Source: Fibrobacterota bacterium (lineage in GTDB: Bacteria > Fibrobacterota > Fibrobacteria > UBA11236). From it: 64,000 bases of DNA. This document shows positions 4,971-26,315 of the stretch, piece by piece. Position numbers and translations under genes: made by a program. The stretch lies in assembly GCA_023249635.1 (NCBI GenBank), contig JAHFCH010000004.1, positions 13,730 through 77,729 of the forward strand. Reading direction: 5' to 3'. Below the pieces are notes generated by a model that saw only the letters and a list, made by a program, of their open reading frames with translations, searched no databases and was not told the origin of the DNA. Position 1 is the stretch's first letter; every line of letters begins with the position of its first letter.

Positions 4971-4980
4971 AAGGGCAATC

Positions 4981-5384: not shown

Positions 5385-5720
5385 TTAACAACAATTCTTC
5401 TCGTGGTTTTTTTTCATTTCCCCGAAGATGCCGGAGAAGGTTTCCCACACATCTTTTAAGGCATCCCAGTCGATACAGTAGCAGGAATTCAGTCCGCTCA
5501 CTTCACCGGTGATGATGCCGGCCTGGCGTAAGTCTTTCAAGTGTTGGGAAACCGTGGATTGCGCCAGCGGAAGCACCTCTACGATTTCCCCGCAGACACA
5601 GGTGCCTTTTTTGGCCAAAATCCGGAGAATCGCCACCCGGGCGGGATGAGATAAAGCTTTGGCAAACTCCGCAACCTTGCGGTCTTTACTGCCGAATTCG
5701 GTCTTCTTACTAAATGCCAT
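5385..5720 (-). CDS. arsR: ArsR/SmtB-family repressor (CVC type with C-terminal CC)
   Basis: LSHPARVAILRIL and LAQSTVSQHLKDL form the winged helix-turn-helix (HTH). CVCGE lies in helix 3. CYC and a terminal NCC are also present. Confidence 0.9.
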   Translation of the reverse strand: MAFSKKTEFGSKDRKVAEFAKALSHPARVAILRILAKKGTCVCGEIVEVLPLAQSTVSQHLKDLRQAGIITGEVSGLNSCYCIDWDALKDVWETFSGIFGEMKKNHEKNCC

Positions 5721-6913: not shown

Positions 6914-6919
6914 GACCAT

Positions 6920-8507: not shown

Positions 8508-8533
8508 TCAGCAACCTCACGGGAAAAGCGGAT

Positions 8534-11083: not shown

Positions 11084-11108
11084 ATTCATTCTCCTGTTCA
11101 TGGGTTGG

Positions 11109-12155: not shown

Positions 12156-12281
12156 AGGATTCCCTTTCATCCGGATTTTCGTTGAGCGTATTCCGCCGCG
12201 GCAGGTGCGGCGAATCGAGATCGGGAGCAAATATACGATGATTGGTTTTGATCCAAATGAATTATTTGCCAATAACCCAAC

Positions 12282-12297
12282 ATCGGTTATCTACGAT
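12282..12297 (-). promoter_or_regulatory. Putative ArsR operator copy between arsR and the porin gene
   Basis: ATCGTAGATAACCGAT on the minus strand keeps the ATCG-N8-CGAT frame and the TACGAT half-site. No good -35 hexamer is nearby. Confidence 0.4.
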
Positions 12298-12396
12298 ATT
12301 CATTTTGGCGGATTTTTATTTTATGCGTTACAATTCGAGAGGCGCATACGTCAATTGCGATTCACCACTCACCATTAATCATGGTGACAAATGCGA

Positions 12397-12741
12397 TCAT
12401 GAAATAACGGAATGAAAACTCTGAGCTGTAGTGATCAACCCATGGAGCGCAATCTGGAAAATCCCCCAAAACTCCGAAAAGGTTCCGCGACTTAAGGAAA
12501 AAAAGGATTTAGGCCCAAAAGTCCTCACCTCAATCAACCCCGAATCGGACAAATCCCGCAAATGGCGCGAGACCGTTGACTGGGCGAGAGGCATCCGATC
12601 CACAATTTCCGAACAGCTTATGGAGTCGTATTGAGCAATGAGCGTGAGGATTTCCAGACGCGCAGGGTGCGAAAGCGCCTTTGCGAAAGATGCAGCCTTT
12701 TGGCTCGCCGCGGGGAATACGGACTTCTTGCTGAGCGCCAC
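12397..12741 (-). CDS. ArsR/SmtB-family regulator lacking the As(III)-binding cysteines
   Basis: LSHPARLEILTLI and LAQSTVSRHLRDL form the HTH. There is only one Cys (SISCSEIV). It has no CxC, no CYC and no C-terminal CC. The GTG start lies 7 nt after the -10 hexamer. Confidence 0.85.
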   Translation of the reverse strand: MALSKKSVFPAASQKAASFAKALSHPARLEILTLIAQYDSISCSEIVDRMPLAQSTVSRHLRDLSDSGLIEVRTFGPKSFFSLSRGTFSEFWGIFQIALHGLITTAQSFHSVIS

Positions 12742-12747
12742 GTTCTT

Positions 12748-12776
12748 AATATCGTCTATTTACGATTTAAAGTCAA
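12748..12776 (-). promoter_or_regulatory. Promoter of arsR-porin-pst-cysE with embedded operator
   Basis: The minus strand reads TTGACT (12776-12771), a 17-nt spacer, then GATATT (12753-12748). The spacer holds ATCGTAAATAGACGAT (12766-12751). The GTG start at 12741 is the 7th nt after the -10. Confidence 0.6.
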
Positions 12777-12820
12777 GCGCGCACCTTCCTCATTTTCCGG
12801 AAATTTCCCGGGTATTCTTA

Positions 12821-12836
12821 ATCGTTTATCTGCGAT
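12821..12836 (+). promoter_or_regulatory. Putative ArsR operator facing the arsI block
   Basis: ATCGTTTATCTGCGAT fits the same ATCG-N8-CGAT frame. Its right half overlaps TGcGATTTA, a possible extended -10, about 100 nt upstream of the arsI ATG. Confidence 0.45.
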
Positions 12837-12936
12837 TTATGTTTTTTATTGTTTTCCATGCCGGATAATGGCATCGGGTGATGTAGATTAACGCTTATCG
12901 GATTTTCAACCGCAACCGCATCTCAAGGAGTCGAAG

Positions 12937-13458
12937 ATGGAAAAGGCAAGCGCCGGGAGTTGTTGCACGACACCCTCGGAATCCCCGCTAAAGCACATGC
13001 AATCCTCAGTGCAATTCAAGGGTGCGATGCGCCCGCACATCAGCATCAACGTAGCGGACGTGTTACGTTCCGTGGAATTCTACCAGGCCCTGTTCGGTCA
13101 GAAGCCGGTAAAGACGAAATCCGACTACGCGAAGTTCGAACCCGAAAATCCTCCTGTGAACTTCGCAATCAACCAAGTCGATGTTCCCGGCAAGCGTGAT
13201 GGCCATTTCGGCATCCAGGTCAAGTCGAAGAAGGCCGTGCAGGATTTCGTGGAGCGCTTCCGGAAGACCGGAGTCAAGATCGAGGAAACCGAAAGCGCCG
13301 TGGCCTGCTGCTATTCGGTTCAAGACAAAGTGTGGCTCACCGATCCCGACGGAAACCATTGGGAGGTCTTTGTCGTAACCGAGAAGGAAGCCGACGAAGG
13401 GTGCGGCGTGACTTGCGTCTGTTACAATGCCGAAACCGGCGGCTGCGACTGGTCTTAG
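12937..13458 (+). CDS. arsI: ArsI C-As lyase (VOC/glyoxalase-fold Fe(II) dioxygenase), copy 1
   Basis: AAGGAG lies 6 nt upstream. The motifs PHISINV, DYAKF, GHFGIQV and VACCYSVQDKVWLTDPDGNHWEVFVV give the vicinal CC and the His/His/Glu pattern I recall for ArsI. The C-terminal tail is Cys-rich (CGVTCVCYNAETGGC). Confidence 0.85.
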   Translation: MEKASAGSCCTTPSESPLKHMQSSVQFKGAMRPHISINVADVLRSVEFYQALFGQKPVKTKSDYAKFEPENPPVNFAINQVDVPGKRDGHFGIQVKSKKAVQDFVERFRKTGVKIEETESAVACCYSVQDKVWLTDPDGNHWEVFVVTEKEADEGCGVTCVCYNAETGGCDWS

Positions 13459-13505
13459 ATCCGAAAACACGGGCATAAGCAAACACCCAAGAAAAGGAAT
13501 AGCGA

Positions 13506-14015
13506 ATGAAAAGCATATGGGAACGTGTCGCGGAATCGGAGAAGGTCGAGAACGACAGCGCTGTCGACTTCCCTACCGATAGCCGCATGCATGTCAGCCT
13601 CAACGTCTCAAACCTGGAAGAGTCGGCCAAATTCTACCGCGTGCTGCTCAACCAGAATCCAAGTAAGGTCAAAGAAGGGTACGTCAAGTTCGAGTCGGTC
13701 GAGCCCGCCATCAATCTAACCTTGAACGATTTCCCCAACGAGACCTCGACGGATGGCCACTTCGGAATCCAAGCCAAAGGGACGGAAGTCATCATGGCAA
13801 ACTACGACCGCTTCAAGGCCAGCGGCTTCAAAATCACCACCGAAGACGATATCGAGTGCTGTTACGCGGTTCAATCCAAAATCTGGGTGGCCGACCCGGA
13901 CGGGAACCGGTGGGAATTATTCGTGACCACCGCCCCTGAAGCGGAGGAAGGTTGCGGTCCCGAGTGCATTTGCCATCGGGAGTTCGAACGCAGTTACGTC
14001 ATCGAGGGCAAGTAA
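13506..14015 (+). CDS. arsI: ArsI C-As lyase, copy 2
   Basis: The motif set is the same as copy 1: MHVSLNV, GYVKF, GHFGIQA and IECCYAVQSKIWVADPDGNRWELFVT. The tail reads EEGCGPECIC. Confidence 0.85.
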   Translation: MKSIWERVAESEKVENDSAVDFPTDSRMHVSLNVSNLEESAKFYRVLLNQNPSKVKEGYVKFESVEPAINLTLNDFPNETSTDGHFGIQAKGTEVIMANYDRFKASGFKITTEDDIECCYAVQSKIWVADPDGNRWELFVTTAPEAEEGCGPECICHREFERSYVIEGK

Positions 14016-14063
14016 GCGAATTTTTCCCGAATCCAATTCTAAACATCCAACAAGGAGTCCATC

Positions 14064-14333
14064 ATGAAATTGAACAACATCAAATCCGTCAATGAGACCA
14101 AGAAAGGCGTTTCCGTCCATCTAGGCGGCGATATCGAGGTCGATAAGGTGAAGGCCATGGTCGCAAAATGCGGCACCGGAACCTGCAGCTGCTGCGGCCC
14201 CGAGTTCGTCCAAGCCCTCCAAGGCATCGACGTCGACGGGAAAGACGGAAGCGTAACCATGACTATCAAAGGCCCGGTTACCAAGGACGTCATTTCGGAA
14301 AAGCTCGCCATCTGCGACTGCTATAACACATGA
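14064..14333 (+). CDS. Small Cys-rich protein of unknown family (89 aa)
   Basis: AAGGAG lies 7 nt upstream. The protein has a KCGTGTCSCCGPE cluster and a C-terminal ICDCY. It has no signal peptide and matches no family I recognise. Confidence 0.6.
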   Translation: MKLNNIKSVNETKKGVSVHLGGDIEVDKVKAMVAKCGTGTCSCCGPEFVQALQGIDVDGKDGSVTMTIKGPVTKDVISEKLAICDCYNT

Positions 14334-14340
14334 ATAACCG

Positions 14341-14366
14341 TAGGGAAGCGCGCGCCTCCCTATTTT
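14341..14366 (+). terminator. Hairpin plus T-tract after the Cys-rich gene (terminator or attenuator)
   Basis: TAGGGAAG-CGCGCG-CCTCCCTA (one mismatch) is followed by TTTT, 8 nt after the stop at 14333. Confidence 0.5.
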
Positions 14367-14433
14367 CACAACCCGCGCAGGCATTGCCTCCGCCCAACAA
14401 TGACGGGGAGGGAAGCTCCCGGAGAAAGGAATT

Positions 14434-15408
14434 ATGAGTCAAAAAGTAGCCGAGAAAACAGACAAGCACGCATCAGTCGAGGAACTGTACAGCACCGCTG
14501 CAAAGGCGCCCCAACCCGGGCTATGCTGCCCCAAGCCCTACATGAACGAAATGACGGCCCACATCCCCAAGGAAGCCTTCGAATTCAACTACGGTTGCGG
14601 GAGCCCCGTCCTCAAAGCCGGGATCAAGGCCGGGGACACCGTAGTGGATCTCGGATCCGGAGTCGGGATTGACTGCTTCGTAGCCGCCAAGCTCGTAGGG
14701 CCCAAAGGCAAGGTGATCGGAATCGATCTCACCGAAGACATGCTTGCGAAGGCCAACAAATATAAAGCCATCGTCGCCCAAAACCTGGGATACGATGTGG
14801 TGGAATTCCGCAAGGGTCTGATCGAATCCATTCCGCTCGAAGCCCAATCCGCCGATGTCGTCCTCTCCAACTGCGTCGTCAACCTGTCCCCGGACAAGGA
14901 AAAGGTCCTCAATGACGTCCGTCGCGTACTGAAGATCGGCGGCCGCGCCGTGATCTCGGACATCGTAAGCGATCGCGATGTGGAACAGGTCCATCAGGAT
15001 GACAAGAAGCTATGGGCGGAGTGCTATACCGGCGCGCTTTCCGTGAAGGCGTTCCTGGAGGCGTTCAAGAAGGCCGGCTTCTACGGACTCTCCCAACTCG
15101 CCGAAACGGCATGGCAAGAAGTCGAAAGTTACAATTTCGCGTCCATCACCGTGGAAGCGTTCAACTATCCCAAGAGCTCGTGCTGCGGAGCACTCGATCA
15201 TTTCGCCGTTTATCTCGGGCCGTACGAATCAGTTGCGGACGAAGATGGCCACCAATTCCCCCGGTTCAAGGCGGTCCCGGTCTGCGCAGAGACCGCGTCA
15301 CGACTGGCTGGGAGCCCGTTCGAATCCAACTTCGTCGTGGCCTTCGCGGGTCGCGAACTCAAACCCGACGCCAATTCATGCGCCCCTGGGGGAGCCTGCT
15401 GCGGCTAA
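14434..15408 (+). CDS. Second, divergent ArsM-like SAM methyltransferase with C-terminal extension
   Basis: The N-terminal region has GLCCPKPY and NYGCGSP. The SAM motif is VVDLGSGVGIDCF, followed by SNCVVNLSPDK and WAECYTGA. An extra roughly 100 aa ends in SSCCG...CAPGGACCG. Confidence 0.75.
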   Translation: MSQKVAEKTDKHASVEELYSTAAKAPQPGLCCPKPYMNEMTAHIPKEAFEFNYGCGSPVLKAGIKAGDTVVDLGSGVGIDCFVAAKLVGPKGKVIGIDLTEDMLAKANKYKAIVAQNLGYDVVEFRKGLIESIPLEAQSADVVLSNCVVNLSPDKEKVLNDVRRVLKIGGRAVISDIVSDRDVEQVHQDDKKLWAECYTGALSVKAFLEAFKKAGFYGLSQLAETAWQEVESYNFASITVEAFNYPKSSCCGALDHFAVYLGPYESVADEDGHQFPRFKAVPVCAETASRLAGSPFESNFVVAFAGRELKPDANSCAPGGACCG

Positions 15409-15418
15409 GCCGGATGCG

Positions 15419-15452
15419 GGTATCCAGGGCAGAGCGTTTTGCCCTGGATACC
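15419..15452 (+). other. Perfect 13-bp inverted repeat between the methyltransferase and the PLP enzyme genes
   Basis: GGTATCCAGGGCA, loop gagcgttt, then TGCCCTGGATACC. There is no clean U-tract after it. It could be an attenuator, an RNA processing or stability element, or a protein-binding site. Confidence 0.5.
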
Positions 15453-15498
15453 ATACCGCATTTGTTACCCACTTTTCACCGAATGGAAGACTGATTGC

Positions 15499-16821
15499 AT
15501 GTTCACCCAAGCCGAAATCAAGGAACTCCGCAAGGATTTTCCCGCCTTGAACCAGGTTAATCCCAAAAACGGTCGGCCACCGGTCTATCTGGATAACAGT
15601 TGCATGACCATGAAGCCCTCGGCCGTTGCCGAAGCGGAATGGGACTATAACACCAAATACCCGGCCTGTGGGGGGCATCGGGGTAGCTATTGGTTCGCTG
15701 AAATCGTGCATGAAAAGGTCGAAGCCGCCCGGGCAGCGCTCGCATCTCTAATCAAGGCACCGGCAGCGAAAAGTTCCGAAGGGAAACCTCTTTACCCCAT
15801 CATCTTTACCCGGAACGCGACAGAAGGTTTGAATCTAGTGGCCTCTACCCTGGGTCTTATGCCCGGTGAAACCGTCCTTATAACCGACAAAGAACACAAT
15901 TCCAACCTGTGCCCCTGGCAGGAATTCGAGAAGCGAGGCGGCAAAGTCATCATCCTTGCCACCAAGGCGGACAACACGTTCGACATGCCTGCCTTCAAGG
16001 CCGCCCTGGCAAAAGACCGCTCCATCAAACTCGTCTCCCTCAACCACAGCTCAAACCTCGACGGGGTTACCAACCCTCTCCAACAAATCGTTAAGGCCGT
16101 TCGCGATACGGAAAAGAAGCAGGCCAGGAATATCTTTATCGCCGTTGATGGCGCCCAAAGCCTCCCCCATCTGCCGTTGAATCTTGGCGAACCCGAGGCG
16201 CCTGGCTTCCTCGACGTCGATTTTTTCGCCGGCTCCATCCATAAAATGTTAGGCCCCTCAGGCATCGGATTCCTCTATGGCAAGCCGGAACTTTTAGACT
16301 GCCTCCCGCCGTACATGGTCGGAGGGTCGACCATATACGAAACCTCGGCCTACCATCGACCGGTTTATGCCGAATGGCCCGCGCGATTCGAAGCGGGCTT
16401 GCAAAATTACGGTGGGATCATCGGTGCGGGTGCGGCGGTCAAATACCTTACCTCCATCCTGCCCCGCATCAAAGGCTATGAAAACCATTTGAACGGGATC
16501 CTGACCGATGTCCTGAAACCTCTGCACGCGGCCGGGAAAATCCGCATCCTCGGGCCCGAAGATGCCCACCAGCGGGGGGGGGTCCTTACCCTGCTGGCGC
16601 CGGAACGCCCGGAAGGAGATCGGATGCGGGCGCTGCGGGAAAAATCATGGCAGCACAACCTCATGTATCGAACCGGCCATTTCTGCGTTGACGTTTGGTT
16701 CTCGACCCGTCAGGACAAGCTCTATCCCGCTTACACGCCGATCCGCCTGTCGGCCTACTTCTACAACACCGAATCCGAAGTCGAGACAACCGCCAAGGTC
16801 ATCCGGGAAATATTCGCTTAG
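15499..16821 (+). CDS. Class-V aminotransferase, cysteine desulfurase / selenocysteine lyase-like (SufS/CsdA-like)
   Basis: Internal ATG of track ORF 15439-16821. The PLP lysine is in FFAGSIHKMLGPSGIGFLYG. The active-site loop is YRTGHFCVD (compare RTGHHCA of SufS). The N-terminal motif is RKDFPAL. Confidence 0.85.
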   Translation: MFTQAEIKELRKDFPALNQVNPKNGRPPVYLDNSCMTMKPSAVAEAEWDYNTKYPACGGHRGSYWFAEIVHEKVEAARAALASLIKAPAAKSSEGKPLYPIIFTRNATEGLNLVASTLGLMPGETVLITDKEHNSNLCPWQEFEKRGGKVIILATKADNTFDMPAFKAALAKDRSIKLVSLNHSSNLDGVTNPLQQIVKAVRDTEKKQARNIFIAVDGAQSLPHLPLNLGEPEAPGFLDVDFFAGSIHKMLGPSGIGFLYGKPELLDCLPPYMVGGSTIYETSAYHRPVYAEWPARFEAGLQNYGGIIGAGAAVKYLTSILPRIKGYENHLNGILTDVLKPLHAAGKIRILGPEDAHQRGGVLTLLAPERPEGDRMRALREKSWQHNLMYRTGHFCVDVWFSTRQDKLYPAYTPIRLSAYFYNTESEVETTAKVIREIFA

Positions 16822-16829
16822 GAACAATC

Positions 16830-17630
16830 ATGCCCACCAAGACTCTCCCCCACCCCCTCACGGCAGACCCATTCGATCGGACGAAACGCCGACTCTTTGA
16901 ATTGTACCGGATGGGAAGCAAGCCCTATCATGCTTGGTTCCATGGCTATGCCGAAATCACGGCCCGGTGCAGCAACAACAATCTCCATGCCTATGGCCTA
17001 TATGTAGGCATCGAAAAAGGCGTCATTACCCGAGTCGGCTACACCAAAGGCGCAGGTAAAGCCCGCAATGCGGCATCCACCGATGAGGTTCACGCTTCGG
17101 TTGCCGCTTTCTGCGGCTATGTCAAGGGGAAACGCATTGAAGACGCCTTGGCTGTGGATATGAAATCCATCCTGAGCCACTACGGCTGCTGGAATGGCCA
17201 CTCACCGGGCCTTCTGAAAACCTTGGAGCGTTCGCGACCGGAAGACCTGGTCCAGTTCAAGGCTACGACTCCGGATGCTCTGTTCAGCCTCGCTTTGGGT
17301 GGAGGCCTCCCTTTCGTTCTCCTGAACTGGGCGATTCTCAATTACACCATCAAGAACGAACTCGTCAATATCGTCGGGGATGCGGCACAGCCCTTCGTGC
17401 GGTTCAAGGACGTAAACCAGGCCCTTAAGTTGGTCAATGCCCTGAAGAATCACCCGGCCCTCGGGGCTCAACGAAGAGCGATGGAAATCGGCGTACGCGC
17501 GTTGCAATTCAATTCCGTGGATGATTCCAGCTTAAGGCTTGCATACCAACGGCATACCTTCGACGGATTCGCGAAGAACGCGAACGCCAAGGGATTTTAC
17601 ATCCTCGATCGATTCCTGTTGCTCAAGTGA
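16830..17630 (+). CDS. Degenerate IscU/NifU-N-like domain protein with an unknown C-terminal half
   Basis: ATG 16830 lies 8 nt after the desulfurase stop. By eye, ARCSNNNLHAYGLYVGIEKGVITRVGYTKGAGKARNAAS...FCGYVKGKRIEDAL aligns to IscU APACGDVMKLQIKV..GIIEDARFKTYGCGSAIASSS...WVKGKSLDEA. The second scaffold Cys is replaced by Ala. Confidence 0.5.
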   Translation: MPTKTLPHPLTADPFDRTKRRLFELYRMGSKPYHAWFHGYAEITARCSNNNLHAYGLYVGIEKGVITRVGYTKGAGKARNAASTDEVHASVAAFCGYVKGKRIEDALAVDMKSILSHYGCWNGHSPGLLKTLERSRPEDLVQFKATTPDALFSLALGGGLPFVLLNWAILNYTIKNELVNIVGDAAQPFVRFKDVNQALKLVNALKNHPALGAQRRAMEIGVRALQFNSVDDSSLRLAYQRHTFDGFAKNANAKGFYILDRFLLLK

Positions 17631-17658
17631 ACCCCGGCAATTCTGAAAGGACAGGGAA

Positions 17659-20600
17659 ATGAAAAAGAGCTTTCTCGTCGATTTCTCAATCAAGCGACCC
17701 AAGACCGTCATTGGCCTTACCATGGCGCTTACCGCCATAATGATGCTTCCCTTCCCGAAGGTGAAGCTGGATACCAATCCAAAAAATATGCTGCCGCCCG
17801 ATGCGGAAGTCCGCATTTGGAATGCCGAGGTGGAGAAAACCTTCGGTCTTTACGAAGATCTGATCGTCGTAGGCGTGACCAACCCGGCAGGGGTGATGAA
17901 CAATACCACCCTTAAAAACATTTCCGTATTGACCGATGGGATCCAGAAAATCACGGGGGTGGCCGCCGCCGATGTATCCAGCTTGGTCAACGTGGATGAT
18001 GTCTCCGCGAATGGCAAATCCCTGGAAGTCAAACCGATCGTCAGCGGACTGCCATTGGAGGAAAAGGATCTGGCTGAAATCGGCGCCTCGGCGATAGCCA
18101 ATCCGCTGCTTGCCGAAAAACTGCTTTCCAAGGACGGAAAGACCACCGCCGTTTATGTCCCCATGGAAAAAGGCGCCAATGGAAAAGTGATCGCGGAAGC
18201 CATCAAGTCCATGATCGCGAAACTGCCGGTTTCCGGAAAAGGGGGTGACAAATTCTTTGTCACAGGCGACCCGGTAGCCAGGGACACTTTCGGCGATTTC
18301 ATGTTCAAGCTGATGGCGGTATTTTCCCCGGTGTCCTGCTTTCTCATGATCGCAGCCATGTACCTGATGTTCCGAAGCATCCCGCTGTGCATCAGCATGA
18401 TGGCCGTCTCGAATATCGCGATCATCTGGAGCGTTGGCCTGGTAATCGCTTTGGGGTTCCCCATCCATCTGATGGCCTCAATGGCCCCGGTCTTTCTGAT
18501 GGCTATCGCGACCGATAGCATCCACATTTTCACGGAGTTTTACTTCCGTTATGCAGAAACCCGGGACCGTAAGCGCGCAATCCTGGAGACCATGGCGGTT
18601 GTAAGCCATCCCGTGAAGTACACCGCATTGACGACTGCGGTGGCTTTTTCCGTGCTCCTATTCATGAAAATCATACCGGTCCAGGTATTCGGAGGCATGA
18701 TCGCCTTCGGCACCATCGCGCTTCGGCTTCTCAGCTTCTCATTCATACCCGCCATCATGGCCCTGCTTGGTGAGAAATCCCTGCTGAAAGTCGCCGCGAA
18801 ATCCCAGGCTTCCGCGGGGCGCCCGGCCGGATTCTTGCGTGGTCTGGCAATGGCCGGCGCCGGCAATCCCCGCCTTGTCGTAGGCGTTGGATTGATATTG
18901 TGCGCGCTGTCCATCGTGGGGATTTCCCGGGTCGTCGTGAACAACAACATGGTCGAATGGTTCAACAAGAAAAATGAAGTCCGAATCGCCGATATGGCGC
19001 TGAATAAAAGCCTCGGGGGCACCTCGCTAGGGTACATGGTTGCCATTGCCGATCCCGGCCAAGGTGAATACATGAAGACCCCCGAGGGACTGCGGTTCCT
19101 TGCGGGACTTCAGCGTAGGTTGGAAAACATCCCGGAAGTCGGCAAGACCAGTTCCATCGCCGACATCGCATCCCGCATCAATCTTGTGTTGCACGGGAAC
19201 GACCCCGTCTACGCAGGCATACCTAAGACCAAGGAAGAAGCCGGGCAATTCCTCTTTCTTTTCTCAATGTCCGCCAAACCGTCGGACGTGAAAAACCTGG
19301 TGGATGACTCCTACGGGAAGGCGAACGTCTGGATCCAGATGAAAACCTGGGATGCTAAGGCGATGCGGTCGGTGATACGTGAATCCCAAGCCTATTTGAG
19401 GGAAAATCCTGCGCCCGTACAATTGAAACCCGCGGGTATCGCCTACTTCAACCTGGCGTGGAACGACGAAGTCCTTTACGATATGTTGAAGGGCTTCGTG
19501 TTGGCCATCTGCGTGGTTTATTCCATCCTCGTATTGAATTTCCGTTCCTTCAAGTGGGCCTTGATAAGCTACGTACCCCTCCTCTTCACTATTCTCCTTA
19601 TCATCGGAATGGTGGGCTTCGTCGGCAAGGACCTCGACATGCCCATCTCCGTCTTGTCCTGCCTTTCCCTGGGCATGGCGGTCGATTTCGCCATCCATTT
19701 CATCAACCGCTTCCGGCAGAAGATGGCTGACAGCGGGTACACGGGGACCGCTGCCGAAGTCAGGGAATGCCTCCTCTGGACCGCTTCGCGGCCGGGTCGC
19801 GGCATTCTGCGGAACGCAATCCTTTTCGGATCGGCATTCCCGGTGATGATGCTTTCTCCCCTGACCCCATATGTCACGGTGGGTGCTTTCATCCCCAGCA
19901 TGATGATTCTAAGCGCATTCCTGACTCTACTGTACCTTCCGGCCCTAATCGTGCTCCTCCGCAAATGGCTATTCAACGGGCAACAAGCGGGACGCGCGGG
20001 AAAACCCGCGGCAGCGGAAAATCTTTCGGTTTCCGCCATGAAAATGGGTCTGTTGCTTATTGGCTCAATCGCGATTCCGCTTCATTCCGAAGAAAACCCG
20101 GCCGCAATAGTGAAGGCTTACCAGAACTCCTTCTATTACCAAGGCTCAACCTTTCGCGGGCGCCTCAAATTGAGCCTGATTGATGCGGACGGAAAGGCCC
20201 GTACCAAAGACATGACCATGGTTCGCGCCACCACGGTTCCCGGAGCGGATCAACGGTACTTCATGTATTTCCATGCCCCAGGCGACGTAAAGGGCATGTC
20301 CTTCCTGGTTTTCAAGTACCCGAACAAGGAAAGCGATCGTTGGCTGTTTATCCCCAGCGTTGACATGGTGCAGCGCATCGCCGCACGGGATGCGGGCTCC
20401 AGTTTCGTGGGATCCGATTTCTCCTATCAGGATATCTCCGGACGGTCAATGGAGGCTGACGAATTCTCCTATGTGAAAGAGGAATTAGTGGCCGGAAAGA
20501 AGTGCCAGGTAGTAGCCAGCGTTCCAAAAAGCAGCGCTGGCTATACCAAGAAGACGTCCTGGATTGACGTGGAGACGTTCCTCCCCATTAAGGAGGAGTA

Positions 20601-20817
20601 TACAGACGTTCAGGGTAAAGTCTTCAAGCGATTCACGGCCGATAGCATTGCCGATCTTTCCGGCCACCCGTTAGTCGTAAGGGGAACTATGACCAACCTC
20701 AAGACCAATCACTCTTCCAAATTCGAATTCAGCGATGTTGCATATGACTTTAAAGCCAACGGGGACGAATTCACTGAGAGGGCCCTCCGGAATCCGCCTC
20801 GGGGTTGGATCAATTGA
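17659..20817 (+). CDS. MMPL/RND-superfamily exporter (COG1033-like, 12 TM) fused in frame to a LolA-like 'outer membrane lipoprotein-sorting' domain
   Basis: The 1052-aa ORF has two 6-TM bundles with large periplasmic loops. From about aa 794 it reads FRGRLKLSLIDADGK...VKGMSFLVFKYPNKESDRWLFIPSVDMVQRIAARDAGSSFVGSDFSYQDISGR, the LolA-like (DUF4367/PF17131-type) signature as I recall it. Confidence 0.8.
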   Translation: MKKSFLVDFSIKRPKTVIGLTMALTAIMMLPFPKVKLDTNPKNMLPPDAEVRIWNAEVEKTFGLYEDLIVVGVTNPAGVMNNTTLKNISVLTDGIQKITGVAAADVSSLVNVDDVSANGKSLEVKPIVSGLPLEEKDLAEIGASAIANPLLAEKLLSKDGKTTAVYVPMEKGANGKVIAEAIKSMIAKLPVSGKGGDKFFVTGDPVARDTFGDFMFKLMAVFSPVSCFLMIAAMYLMFRSIPLCISMMAVSNIAIIWSVGLVIALGFPIHLMASMAPVFLMAIATDSIHIFTEFYFRYAETRDRKRAILETMAVVSHPVKYTALTTAVAFSVLLFMKIIPVQVFGGMIAFGTIALRLLSFSFIPAIMALLGEKSLLKVAAKSQASAGRPAGFLRGLAMAGAGNPRLVVGVGLILCALSIVGISRVVVNNNMVEWFNKKNEVRIADMALNKSLGGTSLGYMVAIADPGQGEYMKTPEGLRFLAGLQRRLENIPEVGKTSSIADIASRINLVLHGNDPVYAGIPKTKEEAGQFLFLFSMSAKPSDVKNLVDDSYGKANVWIQMKTWDAKAMRSVIRESQAYLRENPAPVQLKPAGIAYFNLAWNDEVLYDMLKGFVLAICVVYSILVLNFRSFKWALISYVPLLFTILLIIGMVGFVGKDLDMPISVLSCLSLGMAVDFAIHFINRFRQKMADSGYTGTAAEVRECLLWTASRPGRGILRNAILFGSAFPVMMLSPLTPYVTVGAFIPSMMILSAFLTLLYLPALIVLLRKWLFNGQQAGRAGKPAAAENLSVSAMKMGLLLIGSIAIPLHSEENPAAIVKAYQNSFYYQGSTFRGRLKLSLIDADGKARTKDMTMVRATTVPGADQRYFMYFHAPGDVKGMSFLVFKYPNKESDRWLFIPSVDMVQRIAARDAGSSFVGSDFSYQDISGRSMEADEFSYVKEELVAGKKCQVVASVPKSSAGYTKKTSWIDVETFLPIKEEYTDVQGKVFKRFTADSIADLSGHPLVVRGTMTNLKTNHSSKFEFSDVAYDFKANGDEFTERALRNPPRGWIN

Positions 20818-22064
20818 AATCGATTGTTCCTTTGGCCGCCTTAAAAGTGGCGGCTGTGCTTGCGTATGGCCAACCCGTGGACGTTTCGGGCGGACTCAAT
20901 GCCGTCTATTCCGCCAGGGTGGGAAATCATCCGGAACCCAATCCGGTGTCAGGTTCATTCCTGGCGGGAGAGGAAATTCTAAGGCTGAAGGCGGAGGCAC
21001 GATCGGAATCCGGTAGCGGTGGGTTTATGGCCCTCGTGGAAAACACCTACGACAACCTTAGCCAAGATAACCGATTGGATATCCGTGAGGCATACGCCAC
21101 CCTTCCATTAGGCGCATTCGATATCCGGGCCGGCAAACAGATCATCACGTGGGGAACCGGAGATTTCCTCTTTATCAATGATTTCTTCCCCAAGAACTAC
21201 GCCGCATTCTACGCTGGCCTACCCATTGATCATCTAAAGGAGGGCCTGACCGCACTAAGGATTTCGGGCTATAGTTCAGCGGCGAATCTTGAAATCGTAG
21301 CCACCCCATTTTTCCAGGAAAACATTTTCCCCGGCCAGGATCGATTCATTTTGCCTAAAGATCCCGCGGGCGGCCTCGCCCCGCCCCTCATTCATCCTTC
21401 CCTCCGGTTTGAAAACGGAGAAGTGGCGATTCGCCTTTACCGCAACATCCTGGGTTGGGATGCGGGCCTTTATGGGTACACCGGGCATAACCGACAGCCC
21501 ACCTTGCAGATTTTACCTGCGGATACGGGGGCCAATCTTCGGATCGCCTTCCCTCAAATTGCCTCCGGGGGAATCAGCCTTACCGGCAGCCTACCCCTGG
21601 CCGTGATCAACCTGGAAGCCGGATTTTCCCATCCGTTCGCCGATGGCGCGTGGAAGGCCCCGCTTCTCCCGGATCAAGAATTGAAATTTCTCGGCGGATT
21701 AAAAGCCGGACAGACAGGGGCATGGTCACTCGGCGTCCAATATTATGCCGAGCTCAACGAATTCAATCCCAATACCGCGAACATGCGATCCGGGAATCCT
21801 TTTGTGCCGGAAAATATCCACCAAATATTGACATCCAGTCTGGACTTGAGCCCGGGTTACCAGACTTTGCGAATCTATTGCTTCGCCTACTACGACCTTA
21901 CCTACCGGGAATCCTTAGTCATGCCGGAAATATCCTACCAGGTTACCGATCGGGCGACGATCGCTCTCGGCGGTCGCGGCTATTACGGAAACGGTGATCC
22001 AAGAAGCTTTGGTTACTATGGCTCGAATGATTGTGTGTTCACCCGCGTCTCGTATAGTATCTGA
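20805..22064 (+). CDS. Putative outer-membrane beta-barrel partner of the exporter
   Basis: TTG starts at 20805 or 20814; the latter overlaps the upstream stop as TTGA. The signal-like N-terminus is KSIVPLAALKVAAVLAYG. The body is rich in Y/G/N alternating segments. The C-terminus is ...FTRVSYSI. I cannot assign a family. Confidence 0.5.
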   Translation: MDQLKSIVPLAALKVAAVLAYGQPVDVSGGLNAVYSARVGNHPEPNPVSGSFLAGEEILRLKAEARSESGSGGFMALVENTYDNLSQDNRLDIREAYATLPLGAFDIRAGKQIITWGTGDFLFINDFFPKNYAAFYAGLPIDHLKEGLTALRISGYSSAANLEIVATPFFQENIFPGQDRFILPKDPAGGLAPPLIHPSLRFENGEVAIRLYRNILGWDAGLYGYTGHNRQPTLQILPADTGANLRIAFPQIASGGISLTGSLPLAVINLEAGFSHPFADGAWKAPLLPDQELKFLGGLKAGQTGAWSLGVQYYAELNEFNPNTANMRSGNPFVPENIHQILTSSLDLSPGYQTLRIYCFAYYDLTYRESLVMPEISYQVTDRATIALGGRGYYGNGDPRSFGYYGSNDCVFTRVSYSI

Positions 22065-22068
22065 ACCC

Positions 22069-23358
22069 ATGAATATGCGCGCAACGCCCTATTTCCAAAC
22101 CCAGGTGATCGGCTGTGGGCCGGGCGCTTTGGGGTTGGCAGTTGCTGCCGACAGGTTGAAACTGCTGGACTCCCTGCTTGGGCAAGGGATCGCTTTCTTG
22201 GAAAAGGCGCCGAATCCGAAGGAACTATTCAACCAGCGGTTTCCCTTTCTCATCGAATCCAATTCTATTGCCGACGACTTTTTCAAATCCATCGATAGCG
22301 AAGGCGCCTTCTCGGAAACCTGCCGGAATGAAAATTCCAGGCTCGTATTCTCACGAGAAGGCCGCACCCTACCCCTTGAATTGATAAAAGCCTTCATGAA
22401 CGACTTAACCAAAGCTTTCCTGGAAAAATGCTGCTTCTCCGGGGCCAGCGGAATCTTTTTTGGCCGGGAAATCGATCATCTTCAAATCGGTGAAGATGGG
22501 TCTGTAACGAGCTTCAATCGTTCCGGAGCGCCTATCGCCAAGTCCATGTACGCAGTGCTGGCGACTGGGGCGGGAGAAAACCTGCCTTTACATGCGCATG
22601 GTCCAGGCAATCTTTTCCATTTCCTTCCTTCCGGTGAGGTTTTATCCGGAAAATTCGCTGAGATCTCCCGGGAAATAGCCTCCGGTAAGCCAATCATCAT
22701 TCTCGGCGGTTCCCATAGCGCCTTTTCGGTTGCGCTTTTAATCCTTGATCGCTTCGGTTCCCGGCTCTCCACCGGCCAAATCCAACTTTACCACCGCGGC
22801 GTCTGCCTTTACTTTACCTCCCAACGCGAAGCTTCAGAATCCGGCTACTTCCTTCCCGGAGCGCATATTTTCCGCTCTACCGGGGAGGTGAATAAATTCA
22901 ATGGCTTGCGAGGAAGGGCGAAAAACCTCTATCAGCAAGTTCAATCCGGCATAGAAATGCGCGTCTCCGTAAAAGGCAAAAACGCATACGCGGATTTCCT
23001 CGCCAAAGCGGAATTCCCCGCCCTTATCATTCAGGCTACCGGATATAAGACTCGCCGAATCGGAATCATAAACCACATGGGCGTGCCCATCCGTAATCTG
23101 CATTCCAATAAGAACTGCATGGTCGATTCCCAATGCCGCCTACTCGATTCCTCGGGGGAAATCCTGCCCAACCTCTTCGGCATCGGCATCGGATATCCCC
23201 GCCTGAGCGAGAACAAGGAATTGAAAATCGGAGTCAATTTCTTCCATGGGCCGGATGGGGAAACCATCGTGCGGCAGATCGTATCGCCGTCAAAGACTAC
23301 CGTCTCCGCTGAGACTGCGCTTGCATCAAACTCAAACCTGAATGGAGTCCCAAGTTGA
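22069..23358 (+). CDS. FAD/NAD(P)-dependent flavoprotein monooxygenase, N-hydroxylase (SidA/IucD/PvdA)-like or FMO-like
   Basis: Internal ATG 4 nt after the upstream stop. The motifs are VIGCGPGALGLA (GxGxxG), AVLATGAGE, IIILGGSHSAFSVA (second dinucleotide motif, GGxxSA) and IIQATGYK (ATGY motif). Confidence 0.65.
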   Translation: MNMRATPYFQTQVIGCGPGALGLAVAADRLKLLDSLLGQGIAFLEKAPNPKELFNQRFPFLIESNSIADDFFKSIDSEGAFSETCRNENSRLVFSREGRTLPLELIKAFMNDLTKAFLEKCCFSGASGIFFGREIDHLQIGEDGSVTSFNRSGAPIAKSMYAVLATGAGENLPLHAHGPGNLFHFLPSGEVLSGKFAEISREIASGKPIIILGGSHSAFSVALLILDRFGSRLSTGQIQLYHRGVCLYFTSQREASESGYFLPGAHIFRSTGEVNKFNGLRGRAKNLYQQVQSGIEMRVSVKGKNAYADFLAKAEFPALIIQATGYKTRRIGIINHMGVPIRNLHSNKNCMVDSQCRLLDSSGEILPNLFGIGIGYPRLSENKELKIGVNFFHGPDGETIVRQIVSPSKTTVSAETALASNSNLNGVPS

Positions 23359-23474
23359 ACAAGGACAAACTCTCCAAGGCAATCGGCAACTCCCCGGAGG
23401 CGAACAGCTCTGTAACCTGGTCGAATAACCTGAAACGCGGGCGGGTTCCCGGACCCAGGATGAAGGAAAACAAA

Positions 23475-24656
23475 ATGCTTCCCGATACGTTGGGGGGCTC
23501 TACCATCGCAGTGCATGGGGGAACCTATGAGGATCCGATCACCGGTGCGGTCGGGACTCCTATTTTCCAAAGCAGCACCTTCAACTTTTCCAAGCACACG
23601 TACGATTCATTCGCACAAGGCCTGATTCGGGATATCCCGACCTATACGCGGTATGGCAACCCTACCGTTTGGAGCACCCAGGAAAAGATTTCCCAGCTTG
23701 AAAACGCGGAGAGCACCATTCTGTTTTCCTCGGGAATGTCCGCAATCACCACGACGCTGGTAGGCCTTACGAATCGTGGGGGGCATATCATCAGTTCCTT
23801 TGACGTGTACGGGGGAACGTATAACTTCCTCCGGGAGGATATCCATCAGTTGGGGCGTGAGACGACTCTCGTGGATGGCACCGACCTTGCCGCCGTCGAT
23901 GCCGCGATAAAACCCAATACCCAGGTCCTTTTTTTCGAAACACTTTCCAACCCGCTCCTGAAGGCGCTTCCGCTACGCGGCCTCGCCTCGCTGGCCAAAG
24001 CCAGGAATCTTCTGCTTGTCGTCGACAACACCTTTCTCTCCCCTATCTGCCTCCGTCCCCTCGATGAAGGGGTTGATATCGTCCTGCACAGCTGTTCCAA
24101 ATACATGAATGGCCACAGCGACCTAATTGCCGGATCGGTCTCCGGATCAAGAAAATATGTCGACCGTATCTGGTCGCAAATGCTCAAGTTCGGCGGCAAC
24201 GTGAATCCGCTTTCCGCCTTTCTTTTGGAACGCGGCCTGAAAACGCTTGCTTTACGCATGCAGGCACATGTCTCCAATTCCAAGCAGCTGGCCGCGTTCC
24301 TTGCGAATCATCCCAAGGTCACACGCGTGCATCACCCGTCCTTGCCCAACTACGAATATCCGTGGATTCAAGAATATTGCCGGAACGGGTACGGAGGGAT
24401 GGTCAGCTTCGAAGTGAAAGGCGGGAACGAAGCGGCGCTGGCTTTACTCACCCATTTGAAAATCCCGCTCGTCGCCACAAGTTTGGGCGGCGTAGAGTCC
24501 TTGATCTCTTTGCCTTTCAATACGTCCCATTCCTTTCTAACCGAAAAGCAACGCCAACAAATCGGCATCATGCCGGGTCTTATCCGCCTCTCCGTGGGCG
24601 TCGAGAACATCCAGGACCTCACGGCCGATTTCGATACGGCGCTCGGTCAGATTTAA
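23475..24656 (+). CDS. Cys/Met-metabolism PLP enzyme (cystathionine gamma-synthase / gamma-lyase / O-acyl-homoserine sulfhydrylase family)
   Basis: The PLP lysine is in HSCSKYMNGHSDLIAG. Other motifs are AVHGG...PIFQSSTF, YTRYGNPT and VVDNTF. I chose ATG 23475 because AAGGAA lies 6 nt upstream. Alternatives are ATG 23460 or TTG 23355, which overlaps the upstream stop. Confidence 0.85.
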   Translation: MLPDTLGGSTIAVHGGTYEDPITGAVGTPIFQSSTFNFSKHTYDSFAQGLIRDIPTYTRYGNPTVWSTQEKISQLENAESTILFSSGMSAITTTLVGLTNRGGHIISSFDVYGGTYNFLREDIHQLGRETTLVDGTDLAAVDAAIKPNTQVLFFETLSNPLLKALPLRGLASLAKARNLLLVVDNTFLSPICLRPLDEGVDIVLHSCSKYMNGHSDLIAGSVSGSRKYVDRIWSQMLKFGGNVNPLSAFLLERGLKTLALRMQAHVSNSKQLAAFLANHPKVTRVHHPSLPNYEYPWIQEYCRNGYGGMVSFEVKGGNEAALALLTHLKIPLVATSLGGVESLISLPFNTSHSFLTEKQRQQIGIMPGLIRLSVGVENIQDLTADFDTALGQI

Positions 24657-24689
24657 AGCAGGACACCCTCCAAACCATCGGGAGCAAAG

Positions 24690-25949
24690 ATGAAAAACGG
24701 TTTCAATGTCAGCGGCGTCAGCGAAATGGTCCATGAGTTCAAGGCGAAACCCCGGGAAGCACAGTTGGATTTTTCGGCCCAGGCCTCCTGGCGCGAGGAC
24801 CGATATGACCTTACCATCCAAACCCTTAATGCGGGAACCATCCGGATTCCGCGGGATTTCGGCCTTGAAGTCCGTCCGTTCAATGAAGTGATTAACGACA
24901 TTCCTACTCCGCAAGAACTTTTGATCCTCGCGTTGGGGAGCTGCGTCCTTGTCACCTATGTCCAGGGGTGCAGCGCCAGAGGCATTACCTTGACCAGCCT
25001 TGAAGTGCATTCGGAAGGGCTGGTGCCAAGCGGGGAAGGTACGTTTGGGCAAAAAGCCACCGGACTTAAGCTCAAGGTCGACATCGATTGCGAAGGGGCT
25101 CCCGAAGCCATCAAGGAGATTGCCCAGTTCGCGGGCTGTTTCAGCCCCAATCACCGCACCTTTGTCGAAGACAACAATCCTAGTGTGGAACTATCCATTA
25201 AGGATGGCTCGAGTCGATCCTTCCTGGGCGAATTGAATCCGGAAGCTCCCACGTCGCGGAAGCAGGAAAGCCCAACCGGTGGCCTTCATCCGGTAATCGC
25301 CAAGTCCATTTGGAGATACGGGCTGCAAATCGATTCGCGACTCGAATCCGAGTCTCCGTTCCCTCCGAATTCCCATTCGACGAAAGGCCAGAAACCCGTT
25401 CACAAGTTAAAGGTGGATCAGCCGAAGCAGCTTGGCGGTATCGATCTGGCGCCGAATCCGCAAGAATATCTCCTCGCGGCGATGGCCGGCGAATTGGCCG
25501 CTAATTTTGTCCGACTCGCAAGGAGAGAGGGTTTGAACATCAAATCCGTTTCGGTAAACGGTTCAGGTCGCCTCGATTTACGGGGCATCCTGAATGTGGC
25601 GCCCGTCCCGGTCAAAATGCACAACCTGAGGTTCCATTTGGAAGTGGTCTCGGATGCCTCACAGGAAATCCTGAAACGGATAGCGGGAGATGCTCTCAGC
25701 GACGCGACATCCTTTGCCACCATATCCCAAGCGAACGAGATCGCCGTATCCGTGAAAATGGGCGGTAAACCGCTCCTGGAGTTCACAAGCAATATGCGTC
25801 ACGTGGAAATGTTTCTGACGAACATGCGCGAAAAGATGCGAAAGGCCCAGGAAGAGAAGGAAAAATCCGCCGCTCCCGAAACGGTTCCTTTCTATAAGCG
25901 CGTATTTCCCTTCGGGAAGCTGAAAGGCATGAAGCAGGGCGCGCAATGA
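24690..25949 (+). CDS. Tandem OsmC/Ohr-fold protein (two OsmC-like domains in one chain)
   Basis: Domain 1 has TPQELLILALGSCVLV and FAGCFSPNHRTF, so both peroxidatic and resolving Cys positions are present. Domain 2 has NPQEYLLAAMAGELAANF and no Cys. Confidence 0.7.
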   Translation: MKNGFNVSGVSEMVHEFKAKPREAQLDFSAQASWREDRYDLTIQTLNAGTIRIPRDFGLEVRPFNEVINDIPTPQELLILALGSCVLVTYVQGCSARGITLTSLEVHSEGLVPSGEGTFGQKATGLKLKVDIDCEGAPEAIKEIAQFAGCFSPNHRTFVEDNNPSVELSIKDGSSRSFLGELNPEAPTSRKQESPTGGLHPVIAKSIWRYGLQIDSRLESESPFPPNSHSTKGQKPVHKLKVDQPKQLGGIDLAPNPQEYLLAAMAGELAANFVRLARREGLNIKSVSVNGSGRLDLRGILNVAPVPVKMHNLRFHLEVVSDASQEILKRIAGDALSDATSFATISQANEIAVSVKMGGKPLLEFTSNMRHVEMFLTNMREKMRKAQEEKEKSAAPETVPFYKRVFPFGKLKGMKQGAQ

Positions 25950-25973
25950 ACCCGAAACGGGAGGGGATTTGAG

Positions 25974-26315
25974 ATGGCCCAAAGCAAGAAATCGGAATTC
26001 GGGATTAAGGATCAGAAGTTGGCCGACTTCGCCAAGGCCTTTTCACATCCCGCTCGGGTCTCGATATTGCGGATACTGGCCAAGCAGGGAACATGCATTT
26101 GCGGTGAACTCGTAGACGCGTTGCCTTTGGCTCAATCCACGGTCTCCCAGCATATCCGGGAATTGAAGGACGCCAACATTATTACCGGTGAAGTGGAGGG
26201 CCCCAAATCCTGTTATTGCATCAACTGGGCCGTGCTGGAAGATCAATGGAAGGCCTTTAACTCCATCCTACATGAGATGGAAGCCCATCAAGCCAAGCTT
26301 TGCTGCAAGACCTAA
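25974..26315 (+). CDS. arsR: ArsR/SmtB-family repressor (CIC type with C-terminal CC)
   Basis: FSHPARVSILRIL, CICGE, LAQSTVSQHIRELK, CYC and terminal LCCKT. Confidence 0.9.
   Translation: MAQSKKSEFGIKDQKLADFAKAFSHPARVSILRILAKQGTCICGELVDALPLAQSTVSQHIRELKDANIITGEVEGPKSCYCINWAVLEDQWKAFNSILHEMEAHQAKLCCKT

Follow-up and report, generated by a model that had tools for sequence, protein, structure and literature searches.

The AmeABCD system of Castellaniella defragrans comprises an HAE3 pump, a DUF1302 outer membrane (OM) protein, a DUF1329 protein of the LolA superfamily and a COG4447 protein; the deletion mutant tolerates monoterpenes less well and shows a greater influx of dye (PMC6394551). Genes for DUF1302, DUF1329, COG4447 and COG1033 proteins are co-fit in several bacteria, with clusters in Shewanella and Pseudomonas (bioRxiv 072470). 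The DUF1302/DUF1329 and RND genes of P. putida are needed on fatty esters. TOL_3187 of Thalassolituus oleivorans, which carries two MMPL domains as well as a domain of LolA-like type, is induced 42-fold on n-C28 together with a porin-like gene located downstream (PMC6304351). In LolA3 of Porphyromonas gingivalis (PDB 9tp6), a 13-stranded sheet and a hydrophobic groove are present; the protein does not bind LolB and lacks both the signature Arg of LolA and the signature Leu of LolB (PMC13103446). In the present study, we analysed a related gene set in a 64,000-nucleotide (nt) stretch of the genome of a Fibrobacterota bacterium (assembly GCA_023249635.1, contig JAHFCH010000004.1, positions 13,730 to 77,729 of the forward strand; the whole stretch is referred to as the window). 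In this DNA a single open reading frame (ORF) joins an MMPL-type RND pump to a LolA-like carrier domain, and the gene of a putative OM beta-barrel follows immediately (Table 1).

On balance, we favour the interpretation that this set is an AmeABCD-like, envelope-spanning transporter of a hydrophobic compound, which has been recruited to an arsenic-responsive operon and whose cargo is most likely sulfur-containing. It is highly probable that the machine has been identified correctly and that the fusion is real; a cargo of the sulfur type is, by itself, a tentative proposal. The analysis exposed a conserved three-gene transporter that occurs in groundwater and sediment bacteria of hundreds of species and is tightly linked to sulfide:quinone oxidoreductase (SQR), to sulfur-relay proteins and to ArsR regulators of the sulfur type. 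The value of the finding lies in this widespread SQR-linked cassette, and in the unusual arsenic-sulfur operon that uses it, more than in the fusion.

Architecture of the predicted transporter

The fusion protein matched Pfam MMPL (PF03176) in two halves (103.4 bits, cutoff 20.5), and the Patched and sterol-sensing domain profiles were also matched. Hydropathy and the secondary structure of an AlphaFold2 (AF2) model revealed 12 transmembrane (TM) helices in the pump body, with two periplasmic porter domains (residues ~41-203 and 431-593) in the large loops TM1-2 and TM7-8. Pfam, hydropathy and AF2 thus agree with the first-pass annotation of this DNA, which had described a 12-TM MMPL exporter joined to a LolA-like domain. 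The full-length model of the fusion protein had a pLDDT of 73.3 and a pTM of 0.56. Among the RND families of NCBIfam, the best score was obtained with HAE3 (TIGR00921; 174.4 bits, under the cutoff of 351.9). Orthology was rejected for (i) HpnN (TIGR03480, 82.4 bits against a cutoff of 751.85; NF052374, 20.9 against 1100), (ii) MmpL3 (26 bits against 1400) and (iii) BstA (28 bits against 1400). In the Foldseek comparison of the pump model, the nearest structures were MmpL4/5 (TM-score 0.74-0.78 on target), followed by MmpL3, NPC1/NCR1, HpnN and Patched/Dispatched. Two motifs, ATDSIH in TM4 (D286, H289) and AVDFAIH in TM10 (D676, H680), were invariant in an alignment of 65 sequences; from the literature on MmpL3 and HpnN, we take these Asp/His pairs to be the proton-relay residues.

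The carrier domain (residues 864-1044) was assigned to PF17131 with 171.6 bits (cutoff 30; E 1.8e-50), the match extending over profile positions 2-183 of 184. A profile of this C-terminal domain retrieved the PDB entries 9tp6 (1.5e-50), 3bk5 (5.5e-43) and 4z48 (9e-38), and the carrier part of the AF2 model consists of a helix followed by ~11 strands. No match to Pfam LolA was obtained on the fusion protein at E <= 0.01, and DUF1329 scored 18.2 bits on the LolA-like domain, under its cutoff of 23.1. Canonical Lol sorting of lipoproteins was therefore rejected: apart from the missing LolA match, the closest solved relative, LolA3, stands outside the LolA-LolB relay, since it neither binds LolB nor carries the LolA and LolB signature residues.

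The motif DRW...RRIAA.D..SSFVGSDF.YEDxSGR (20332-20442) showed near 100% identity over the 87 carrier domains compared, which come from many phyla; the motif quoted in the first-pass annotation, DRWLF...DISGR, corresponds to residues 892-928. This conserved DRW...SGR motif could serve as the interface with the pump or the barrel. The cysteine at carrier position 137 (20503-20505), usually the only one of the domain, is present in 74 of the 87 homologues; a role as an essential ligand residue was discarded, as it is absent from the remaining 13.

The barrel ORF matched DUF1302 (PF06980) with 34.4 bits (cutoff 23.2), the match covering only profile positions 132-359 of 541. DUF1302 was matched by 38 of 59 barrel homologues and Wzi by 14 of them; a word-based search for homologues gave 6 matches. 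It is the 419-aa ORF of the window, and not the 454-aa one, that is homologous to the barrel partner of other loci (31-36% identity). An in-frame TTG at 20814 overlaps the stop codon of the pump-carrier gene (20815-20817) as TTGA, which bears out the overlap reported earlier, and gives a clean signal peptide; the longest ORF begins at TTG 20805, a -12 geometry common in the family. Public gene calls shorten the barrel to 345 aa in the source of the window and to 367 aa in L001, a locus from a different groundwater metagenome whose fusion protein is 85% identical (L001:13150-14409), and thereby remove the signal peptide. The longer ORF (20805-22064) is supported by alignments of homologues. The earlier view of a three-part envelope-spanning set is thus sustained by an RND fold of the type that handles lipids and hydrophobic compounds, a LolA-like carrier and a predicted DUF1302-type barrel.

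Distribution and genomic context of the cassette

The carrier domain was scanned against one genome per species, and at least 426 relatives were detected; the survey was based on the 80 best loci, from Nitrospirota, Elusimicrobiota, Acidobacteriota, Omnitrophota, Desulfobacterota, Gemmatimonadota and others. None of the 80 was fused. The MMPL gene lay on the same strand in 78 loci, at most 500 nt upstream in 72, and a barrel homologue was found in all 80, usually at -12 to +20 nt from the carrier stop codon. The order MMPL, LolA-like, barrel and this tight spacing (about -12 to +20 nt between genes) are kept across many phyla. Three adjacent, separate genes are therefore the normal state, in line with the statement in the first-pass annotation that pump and carrier are usually neighbouring genes.

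Neighbours were counted within 10 kb of the 80 loci. SQR-type or related flavoproteins were found at 39 loci, all on the cassette strand, and in 29 of these cases the gene lay no more than 2 kb upstream of the pump. In locus L007, the flavoprotein proved to be a true SQR, which matched the Aquifex enzyme over the full length with E 6e-95. Other sulfur or selenium neighbours were DsrE (26 loci), DsrH (19), rhodanese (8) and SelD-like proteins (5), so that 50 of the 80 loci had at least one such gene. ArsR-family regulators, detected by tblastn with the regulator of L007, were present at 40 loci. Twenty-two regulators are located directly upstream of the pump, six of them ~220-235 aa long; the five of these checked by Pfam are fusions of HTH_5 and rhodanese. 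The theme of the cassette family is the handling of sulfide and sulfane sulfur (and selenium). No literature linking the cassette to arsenic, DsrE or SQR was found.

By the same counts, ArsI, MIP channels and the two rare proteins of the window, unk266 and flavo430, were absent from all 80 loci, and ArsC was present at one. Among cassette regulators, the CxC motif was seen only in the window and in L001. Methyltransferases of the ArsM superfamily occurred at six loci; five lie on the cassette strand just after the barrel and lack an equivalent of ArsM Cys174, while the sixth, in L028, is the sole complete ArsM and is on the opposite strand. These neighbours were for the most part rejected as an independent link to arsenic. 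The arsenic link of the cassette is local only, confined to the lineage of the window and L001. The other fused lineages have DsrE/DsrH/SQR/ArsR or ArsR-rhodanese surroundings, and only one of about five fused lineages is associated with arsenic; fusion and arsenic are therefore uncorrelated, which answers the question of the first-pass annotation whether fused versions associate with ars genes.

Several further features of the neighbourhoods are worth mentioning. The ArsM-superfamily methyltransferase gene just 3' of the barrel in L063 (L063:12551-13171, + strand) contains an in-frame TGA, which aligns exactly with the conserved Cys224 equivalent (WFA*VCGA versus WFRCIGGA in relatives); its product is probably a selenocysteine-containing methyltransferase. 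Directly after the barrel, seven loci (L013, L015, L021, L023, L027, L041, L068) carry a distant Pyr_redox_2 flavoprotein, 26-30% identical to SQR. This post-barrel position is occupied by flavo430 in the window and by a Pyr_redox_2/Pyr_redox_dim gene in L003. SelD and other selenium-utilisation genes adjoin the cassette in several relatives, and YedE-like and TauE genes are found in some loci.

Predicted mechanism, cargo and alternative interpretations

The AmeABCD-like parts, the groove of LolA3 and the invariant Asp/His pairs lead us to infer a relay from a proton-driven pump through a tethered carrier to the barrel. Our model of the mechanism draws on analogies to MmpL3, HpnN, AmeABCD and Lol. 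The pump, driven through the Asp/His pairs of TM4 and TM10, would take a hydrophobic small molecule from the outer leaflet of the inner membrane and load it onto the tethered carrier, in its hydrophobic groove; signal peptidase may release this carrier. From the carrier, the molecule would then reach the barrel and either be inserted into the OM or pass through it.

In the window, the cassette is flanked by a SufS-like enzyme with its putative partner, a gamma-lyase-like enzyme, a flavoprotein and an OsmC-like protein, under an As(III)-type ArsR and together with ArsI and ArsM-like genes. The cargo might be a hydrophobic sulfur species, i.e. sulfane sulfur or polysulfur, and in the operon of the window an arsenic-sulfur or methyl-arsenic-sulfur compound, as opposed to free arsenite. 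Such a cargo appears the most economical, because the polysulfur that SQR makes at the membrane is hydrophobic and the enzymes flanking the cassette in the window make or process reactive sulfur. A more specific version, which we consider rather unlikely, is that the ArsR(-rhodanese)/MMPL/PF17131/DUF1302 unit moves the zero-valent sulfur made by SQR (polysulfane or S8) across the periplasm and the OM, and that in the window it has been rewired under an As(III)-sensing ArsR to deliver reactive sulfur or an arsenic-sulfur product to the outside as a means of arsenic detoxification. The cassette is a concrete candidate for the exit of insoluble zero-valent sulfur from Gram-negative cells. In the window, where it shares a putatively arsenic-regulated operon with ArsI, an ArsM-like enzyme, the desulfurase pair and two proteins of very rare families, it points to a hitherto undescribed arsenic-sulfur pathway, which would be relevant to arsenic speciation in aquifers.

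Several observations weigh against a sulfur-transporting, arsenic-responsive exporter. The assignment of the cargo is guilt by association and is the weakest step of the argument: the operon of the window itself contains neither SQR nor DsrE, and in 30 of the 80 loci no sulfur or selenium gene occurs within 10 kb of the cassette. The direction of export is assumed, and the requirement for related sets during growth on esters and alkanes could mean uptake. As for the structure, the model of the fusion protein is of moderate quality, the docking of the carrier on the pump is not confident, and the most conserved motif of the carrier (887-928) is the part of the domain that was modelled with the least confidence. 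The single-operon interpretation depends on spacing and synteny, since the promoter and terminator scans were uninformative, and no RNA contig on the pump was found in three metatranscriptomes of the study from which the window derives.

The first-pass annotation had considered the set to be the arsenic efflux route of the island, for methylated or thiolated arsenicals or an arsenolipid, an interpretation that we judge unlikely. It accords with the tight same-strand run in which the cassette stands together with both ArsI genes, the ArsM-like gene with its full set of cysteines and an arsR of the CxC type, an arrangement conserved in L001. The sulfur-donating enzymes that flank the cassette make thiolation conceivable, and ArsM-superfamily methyltransferases lie just 3' of the barrel in five other loci. 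The reported absence of ArsB, Acr3 and ArsP proved correct: none was found among the polytopic membrane ORFs of the window (the others being ABC-2, BPD_transp and two distant MFS proteins), and a Pfam/NCBIfam scan of the ORFs of the block, including the cassette, gave no match to ArsB, Acr3, ArsP, ArsK or ArsJ. However, contrary to what had been stated, the block contains other transport genes besides the cassette: a MIP channel, a Pst-type importer and a porin-like ORF are also encoded there. A MIP channel combined with ArsC, as in AqpS-ArsC, is a type of arsenite exit. With such a channel next to ArsC in the block, the argument that made the cassette the obvious export route by elimination fails, even though the permeases are truly absent, and their absence does not make the cassette the arsenic exit. 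Elsewhere, moreover, the cassette is accompanied by ArsI at none and by ArsC at one of the 80 loci, the CxC-type ArsR is restricted to the present lineage, and the methyltransferases downstream of the barrel lack the Cys174 equivalent. We know of no requirement of small methylated arsenicals for an RND-carrier-barrel route. Of the cargoes suggested, a thiolated arsenical survives as a minority possibility, given the flanking sulfur enzymes; nothing in the operon hints at the synthesis of an arsenolipid, and neither lipid-synthesis nor radical-SAM (ArsS/ArsL) genes that could serve an arsenolipid or arsenosugar are present.

Quite unlikely, in our opinion, is an exporter of envelope lipids or OM components, similar to HpnN or to the 'cell wall component' function of Price et al., that is placed in stress operons to harden the OM and carries neither sulfur nor arsenic. 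The closest folds of the pump are lipid and siderophore RND pumps, proteins of the LolA superfamily handle acyl chains, the co-fit DUF1302, DUF1329 and RND sets show pleiotropic envelope phenotypes, and the loci devoid of sulfur neighbours would be accounted for. Against this stand the strong, same-strand linkage to SQR, DsrE and ArsR-rhodanese regulators and the absence of lipid-biosynthesis genes beside the cassette in the contexts inspected.

The set might also take up an insoluble hydrophobic substrate (S8, Se0), as has been proposed for the alkane and ester sets. The induction of TOL_3187 and its porin-like neighbour on n-C28 and the need for the P. putida genes on fatty esters would fit such a role, and the SelD, YedE-like and TauE neighbours of some loci hint at selenium or sulfur acquisition. 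Nevertheless, we regard uptake as improbable: deletion of AmeABCD lowers tolerance and raises dye influx, and SQR produces S0 and does not consume it. To our knowledge, the characterised bacterial RND pumps export. A hydrophobe exporter with a sulfur-containing cargo remains the interpretation that we prefer.

Anatomy, reality and origin of the fusion

Hydropathy revealed a 13th hydrophobic segment at residues 793-810, after the 12 TM helices of the pump. In the AF2 model the linker (775-811) has a pLDDT <50 and contains one short hydrophobic helix (791-802). The 13th segment can be aligned to the signal peptide carried by the separate LolA-like protein of L007, and many fused relatives retain a signal-peptidase motif of the AxA type in this hydrophobic stretch; in unfused relatives, the MMPL protein stops directly after TM12 (...GWLLKGDIK*). 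To judge from this alignment, the segment is the retained signal peptide of an ancestral stand-alone LolA-like gene. It would be needed for reasons of topology, because the C-terminus of the MMPL part is cytoplasmic and the 13th segment brings the carrier into the periplasm.

The fusion is a genuine, in-frame join of an MMPL-type RND pump with a PF17131 carrier that is usually encoded by the next gene. Three lines of evidence led to this conclusion. First, the same fused architecture occurs in 18 other 90%-identity clusters (49-85% identical, 1033-1058 aa). Second, in L001 the linker of ~25 codons has diverged, yet is open in frame. Third, positions 19835-20106, i.e. the end of TM12, the linker, the 13th segment and the beginning of the carrier, are spanned without a single mismatch or gap by a contig of another sample (X2) from the study that yielded the window. 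The sequence was also present in run X1, where the contigs examined (45%) did not cover the junction. No Shine-Dalgarno sequence or other ribosome-binding site was found 5' of the internal ATG, either in the window or in L001.

A single cluster of at least 90% identity holds both forms. In the fused protein P0170, the junction reads ...GWLFEG-GTN-MKRVAATSLVLAF...SSA|ADNG; in the split P0168, the frame is lost after GWLFEG and a stop follows 17 codons later. A small indel is therefore sufficient to turn the overlapping genes into one. In a neighbour-joining tree of the MMPL part (no bootstrap), the fused proteins fall into ~5 groups, some with unfused sisters, and their linkers are of three length classes; fusion, or its reversal, is therefore recurrent. 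That the fusion is a frameshift or assembly artefact of an organism that really has two genes, a possibility raised in the first-pass annotation, is hardly credible: a small indel does toggle between the two forms, and both occur within clusters of at least 90% identity, but the X2 contig crosses the junction with 0 differences, the linker of L001 is open, 18 clusters share the architecture and the internal ATG lacks a ribosome-binding site. The fusion is, at the same time, a minor and rare evolutionary variant, and its architecture has already been published (TOL_3187).

Gene content of the window block

The cassette lies in a block (~4000-26300) whose GC content (0.51-0.56) is lower than that of its surroundings (~0.62). 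The part from 7686 to 26315 is syntenic with L001 at 73-75% DNA identity, and this synteny breaks off precisely where the terminal arsR ends. Neither tRNA genes nor an integrase were seen at the block edges. The + strand run consists, in this order, of ArsI, ArsI, an 89-aa Cys-rich ORF, ArsM-like, SufS-like, unk266, pump-carrier, barrel, flavo430, gamma-lyase-like, double OsmC and ArsR genes, separated by gaps of -4 to 100 nt. In a scan of 12.2-26.9 kb, promoter and terminator sites were no more numerous than in shuffled sequence. The three metatranscriptomes yielded one 212-nt contig (14884-15095), on the ArsM-like gene.

Table 1. Features of the window, with positions numbered from its first letter
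Feature	Position	Strand	Basis or remarks
MIP-family channel	4230-4970	+	PF00230, E 4.6e-30; NCBIfam under cutoff
LMWP ArsC-like reductase, abutting MIP	4873-5379	+	PF01451; NCBIfam under cutoff
Pst-type ABC importer (PstB, PstA, PstC, PstS-like)	7686-11167	-	PstA 239 bits (cutoff 193), PstC 213 (196)
Porin-like 387-aa ORF	11109-12272	-	Signal peptide, C-terminal ...EFSY; no family match
Divergent ArsR-family regulator	12397-12741	-	NF033788, 62.5 bits; single Cys, no CxC
ArsI/CadI-family VOC metalloenzymes, tandem pair	12937-13458, 13506-14015	+	NF041414, 132.8 and 126.8 bits (cutoff 116)
ArsM-like S-adenosylmethionine (SAM) methyltransferase, 324 aa	14434-15408	+	NF008823, 219.5 bits, under cutoff of 263
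SufS-like class-V aminotransferase (cysteine desulfurase/selenocysteine-lyase type)	15439-16821	+	Aminotran_5, E 2.5e-69
unk266, rare 266-aa protein	16830-17630	+	14 matches in 1.84e9 representatives
MMPL-LolA fusion ORF	17659-20817	+	1052 aa
MMPL/RND transporter body	17659-19980	+	Residues 1-774; Pfam MMPL, Patched, Sterol-sensing; hydropathy; AF2/Foldseek
Fusion linker and 13th hydrophobic segment (MKMGLLLIGSIAIPLHS)	19981-20094	+	Residues 775-812; aligned with signal peptide of L007 LolA-like protein
LolA_like (PF17131, TP_0789-like) periplasmic carrier domain	20095-20817	+	Pfam, PDB profile, conservation
Predicted DUF1302-type OM beta-barrel, signal peptide MKSIVPLAALKVAAVLAYG	20814-22064	+	DUF1302 match; homology to partner in 80/80 loci
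flavo430, rare FAD/NAD(P)-type flavoprotein	22069-23358	+	21 homologues in 5.8e9 proteins, distant ones with PF07992
Cys/Met-metabolism pyridoxal phosphate enzyme (cystathionine/methionine gamma-lyase-like)	23355-24656	+	PF01053, E 9.4e-120; NCBIfam equivalogs all under cutoff
Double OsmC-like protein	24690-25949	+	PF02566, two stretches
Terminal ArsR/SmtB regulator	25974-26315	+	HTH_5, NF033788; closes gene run

Both copies of ArsI have a vicinal CC pair. Between ArsI and the ArsM-like gene, the 89-aa Cys-rich ORF (CGTGTCSCCGP...CDCYNT; 14064-14333, + strand), which is conserved in L001, could encode a small metalloid-binding protein. The ArsM-like protein has all four cysteine positions of the ArsM type (LCCP, YGCG, SNCVVNL, ECYTGA) and a Cys-rich tail. 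The SufS-like gene scored 270.6 bits with the SufS subfamily, under the cutoff of that model. In unk266, C95 is invariant and C47 (ITARCS) nearly invariant, and in one organism the protein is fused to an Aminotran_5 domain (P0152, a Rosetta stone case); because of this fusion, unk266 is probably a partner or sulfur acceptor of the SufS-like enzyme, and it may be a persulfide acceptor of a novel type. At E <= 5, Pfam yielded nothing beyond noise for the 89-aa ORF, the 387-aa ORF and unk266, and the PDB sequence search with flavo430 and unk266 gave nothing. The AF2 model of flavo430 (pLDDT 86.5) resembles SidA, DesB and KtzI (Foldseek TM-score 0.53-0.58), while its Pfam matches were all below threshold; we confidently predict from this model a fold like that of class-B flavin monooxygenases, and the enzyme might conceivably oxidise a soft nucleophile (S, Se or As). 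The second half of the OsmC-like protein best matched the 'OsmC-related (seleno)protein' model (64.6 bits, under cutoff).

The terminal ArsR has a CxC motif of the As(III) type (GTCICGE) and a C-terminal CC pair. Four ArsR paralogues are present in the 22-kb block, at 5385-5720 (-), 6575-6919 (-), 12397-12741 (-) and 25974-26315 (+); three of them have the CxC motif and the C-terminal CC pair, and the one at 12397-12741 has a single Cys. Of the Pst-type importer, PstB and PstS scored just under their cutoffs, and the 387-aa ORF is likely a porin dedicated to this importer. The block also holds a serine O-acetyltransferase gene.

Comparison with known systems

As in canonical ars efflux, the cassette is located in an ArsR-flanked run with ArsI and ArsM-like genes, and it has no homology to any known arsenical permease (ArsB, Acr3, ArsP); within the block, it is the MIP and ArsC pair that resembles AqpS-ArsC of Sinorhizobium. 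The pump shares the lipid-type RND fold (Foldseek TM-score 0.57-0.78 on target) and the proton-relay Asp of TM4 and TM10 with HpnN (hopanoid), MmpL3/4/5 (mycolate, siderophore) and BstA (sterol), which, unlike the pump of the window, have other accessory proteins or none. LolA3, 3bk5 and 4z48 contain the same PF17131 domain as the carrier (E 1.5e-50 to 9e-38), but are stand-alone secreted proteins, whereas the carrier of the window is tethered to an RND pump. The same architecture is found in TOL_3187 and its downstream porin-like gene, to which the set can be likened from the published description; TOL_3187 belongs, however, to a gammaproteobacterial alkane degrader and has no arsenic or sulfur context.

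The closest resemblance in composition is to AmeABCD and the co-fit clusters, in which a COG1033 HAE3-like RND protein, a periplasmic protein of the LolA superfamily and a DUF1302 OM protein likewise occur together. The differences concern (i) the carrier, which is DUF1329 in AmeABCD and PF17131 in the window, (ii) the barrel, of 605 aa in AmeABCD and of 416 aa in the window, where it covers part of the DUF1302 profile only, (iii) the fourth, COG4447/BNR protein of AmeABCD, which was matched by none of the ORFs of the window operon, and (iv) the order pump, carrier, barrel, with pump and carrier fused. Finally, sets of the AmeABCD type are embedded in islands for hydrophobic compounds, whereas the cassette of the window stands in a sulfur and arsenic context instead of a hydrocarbon one.

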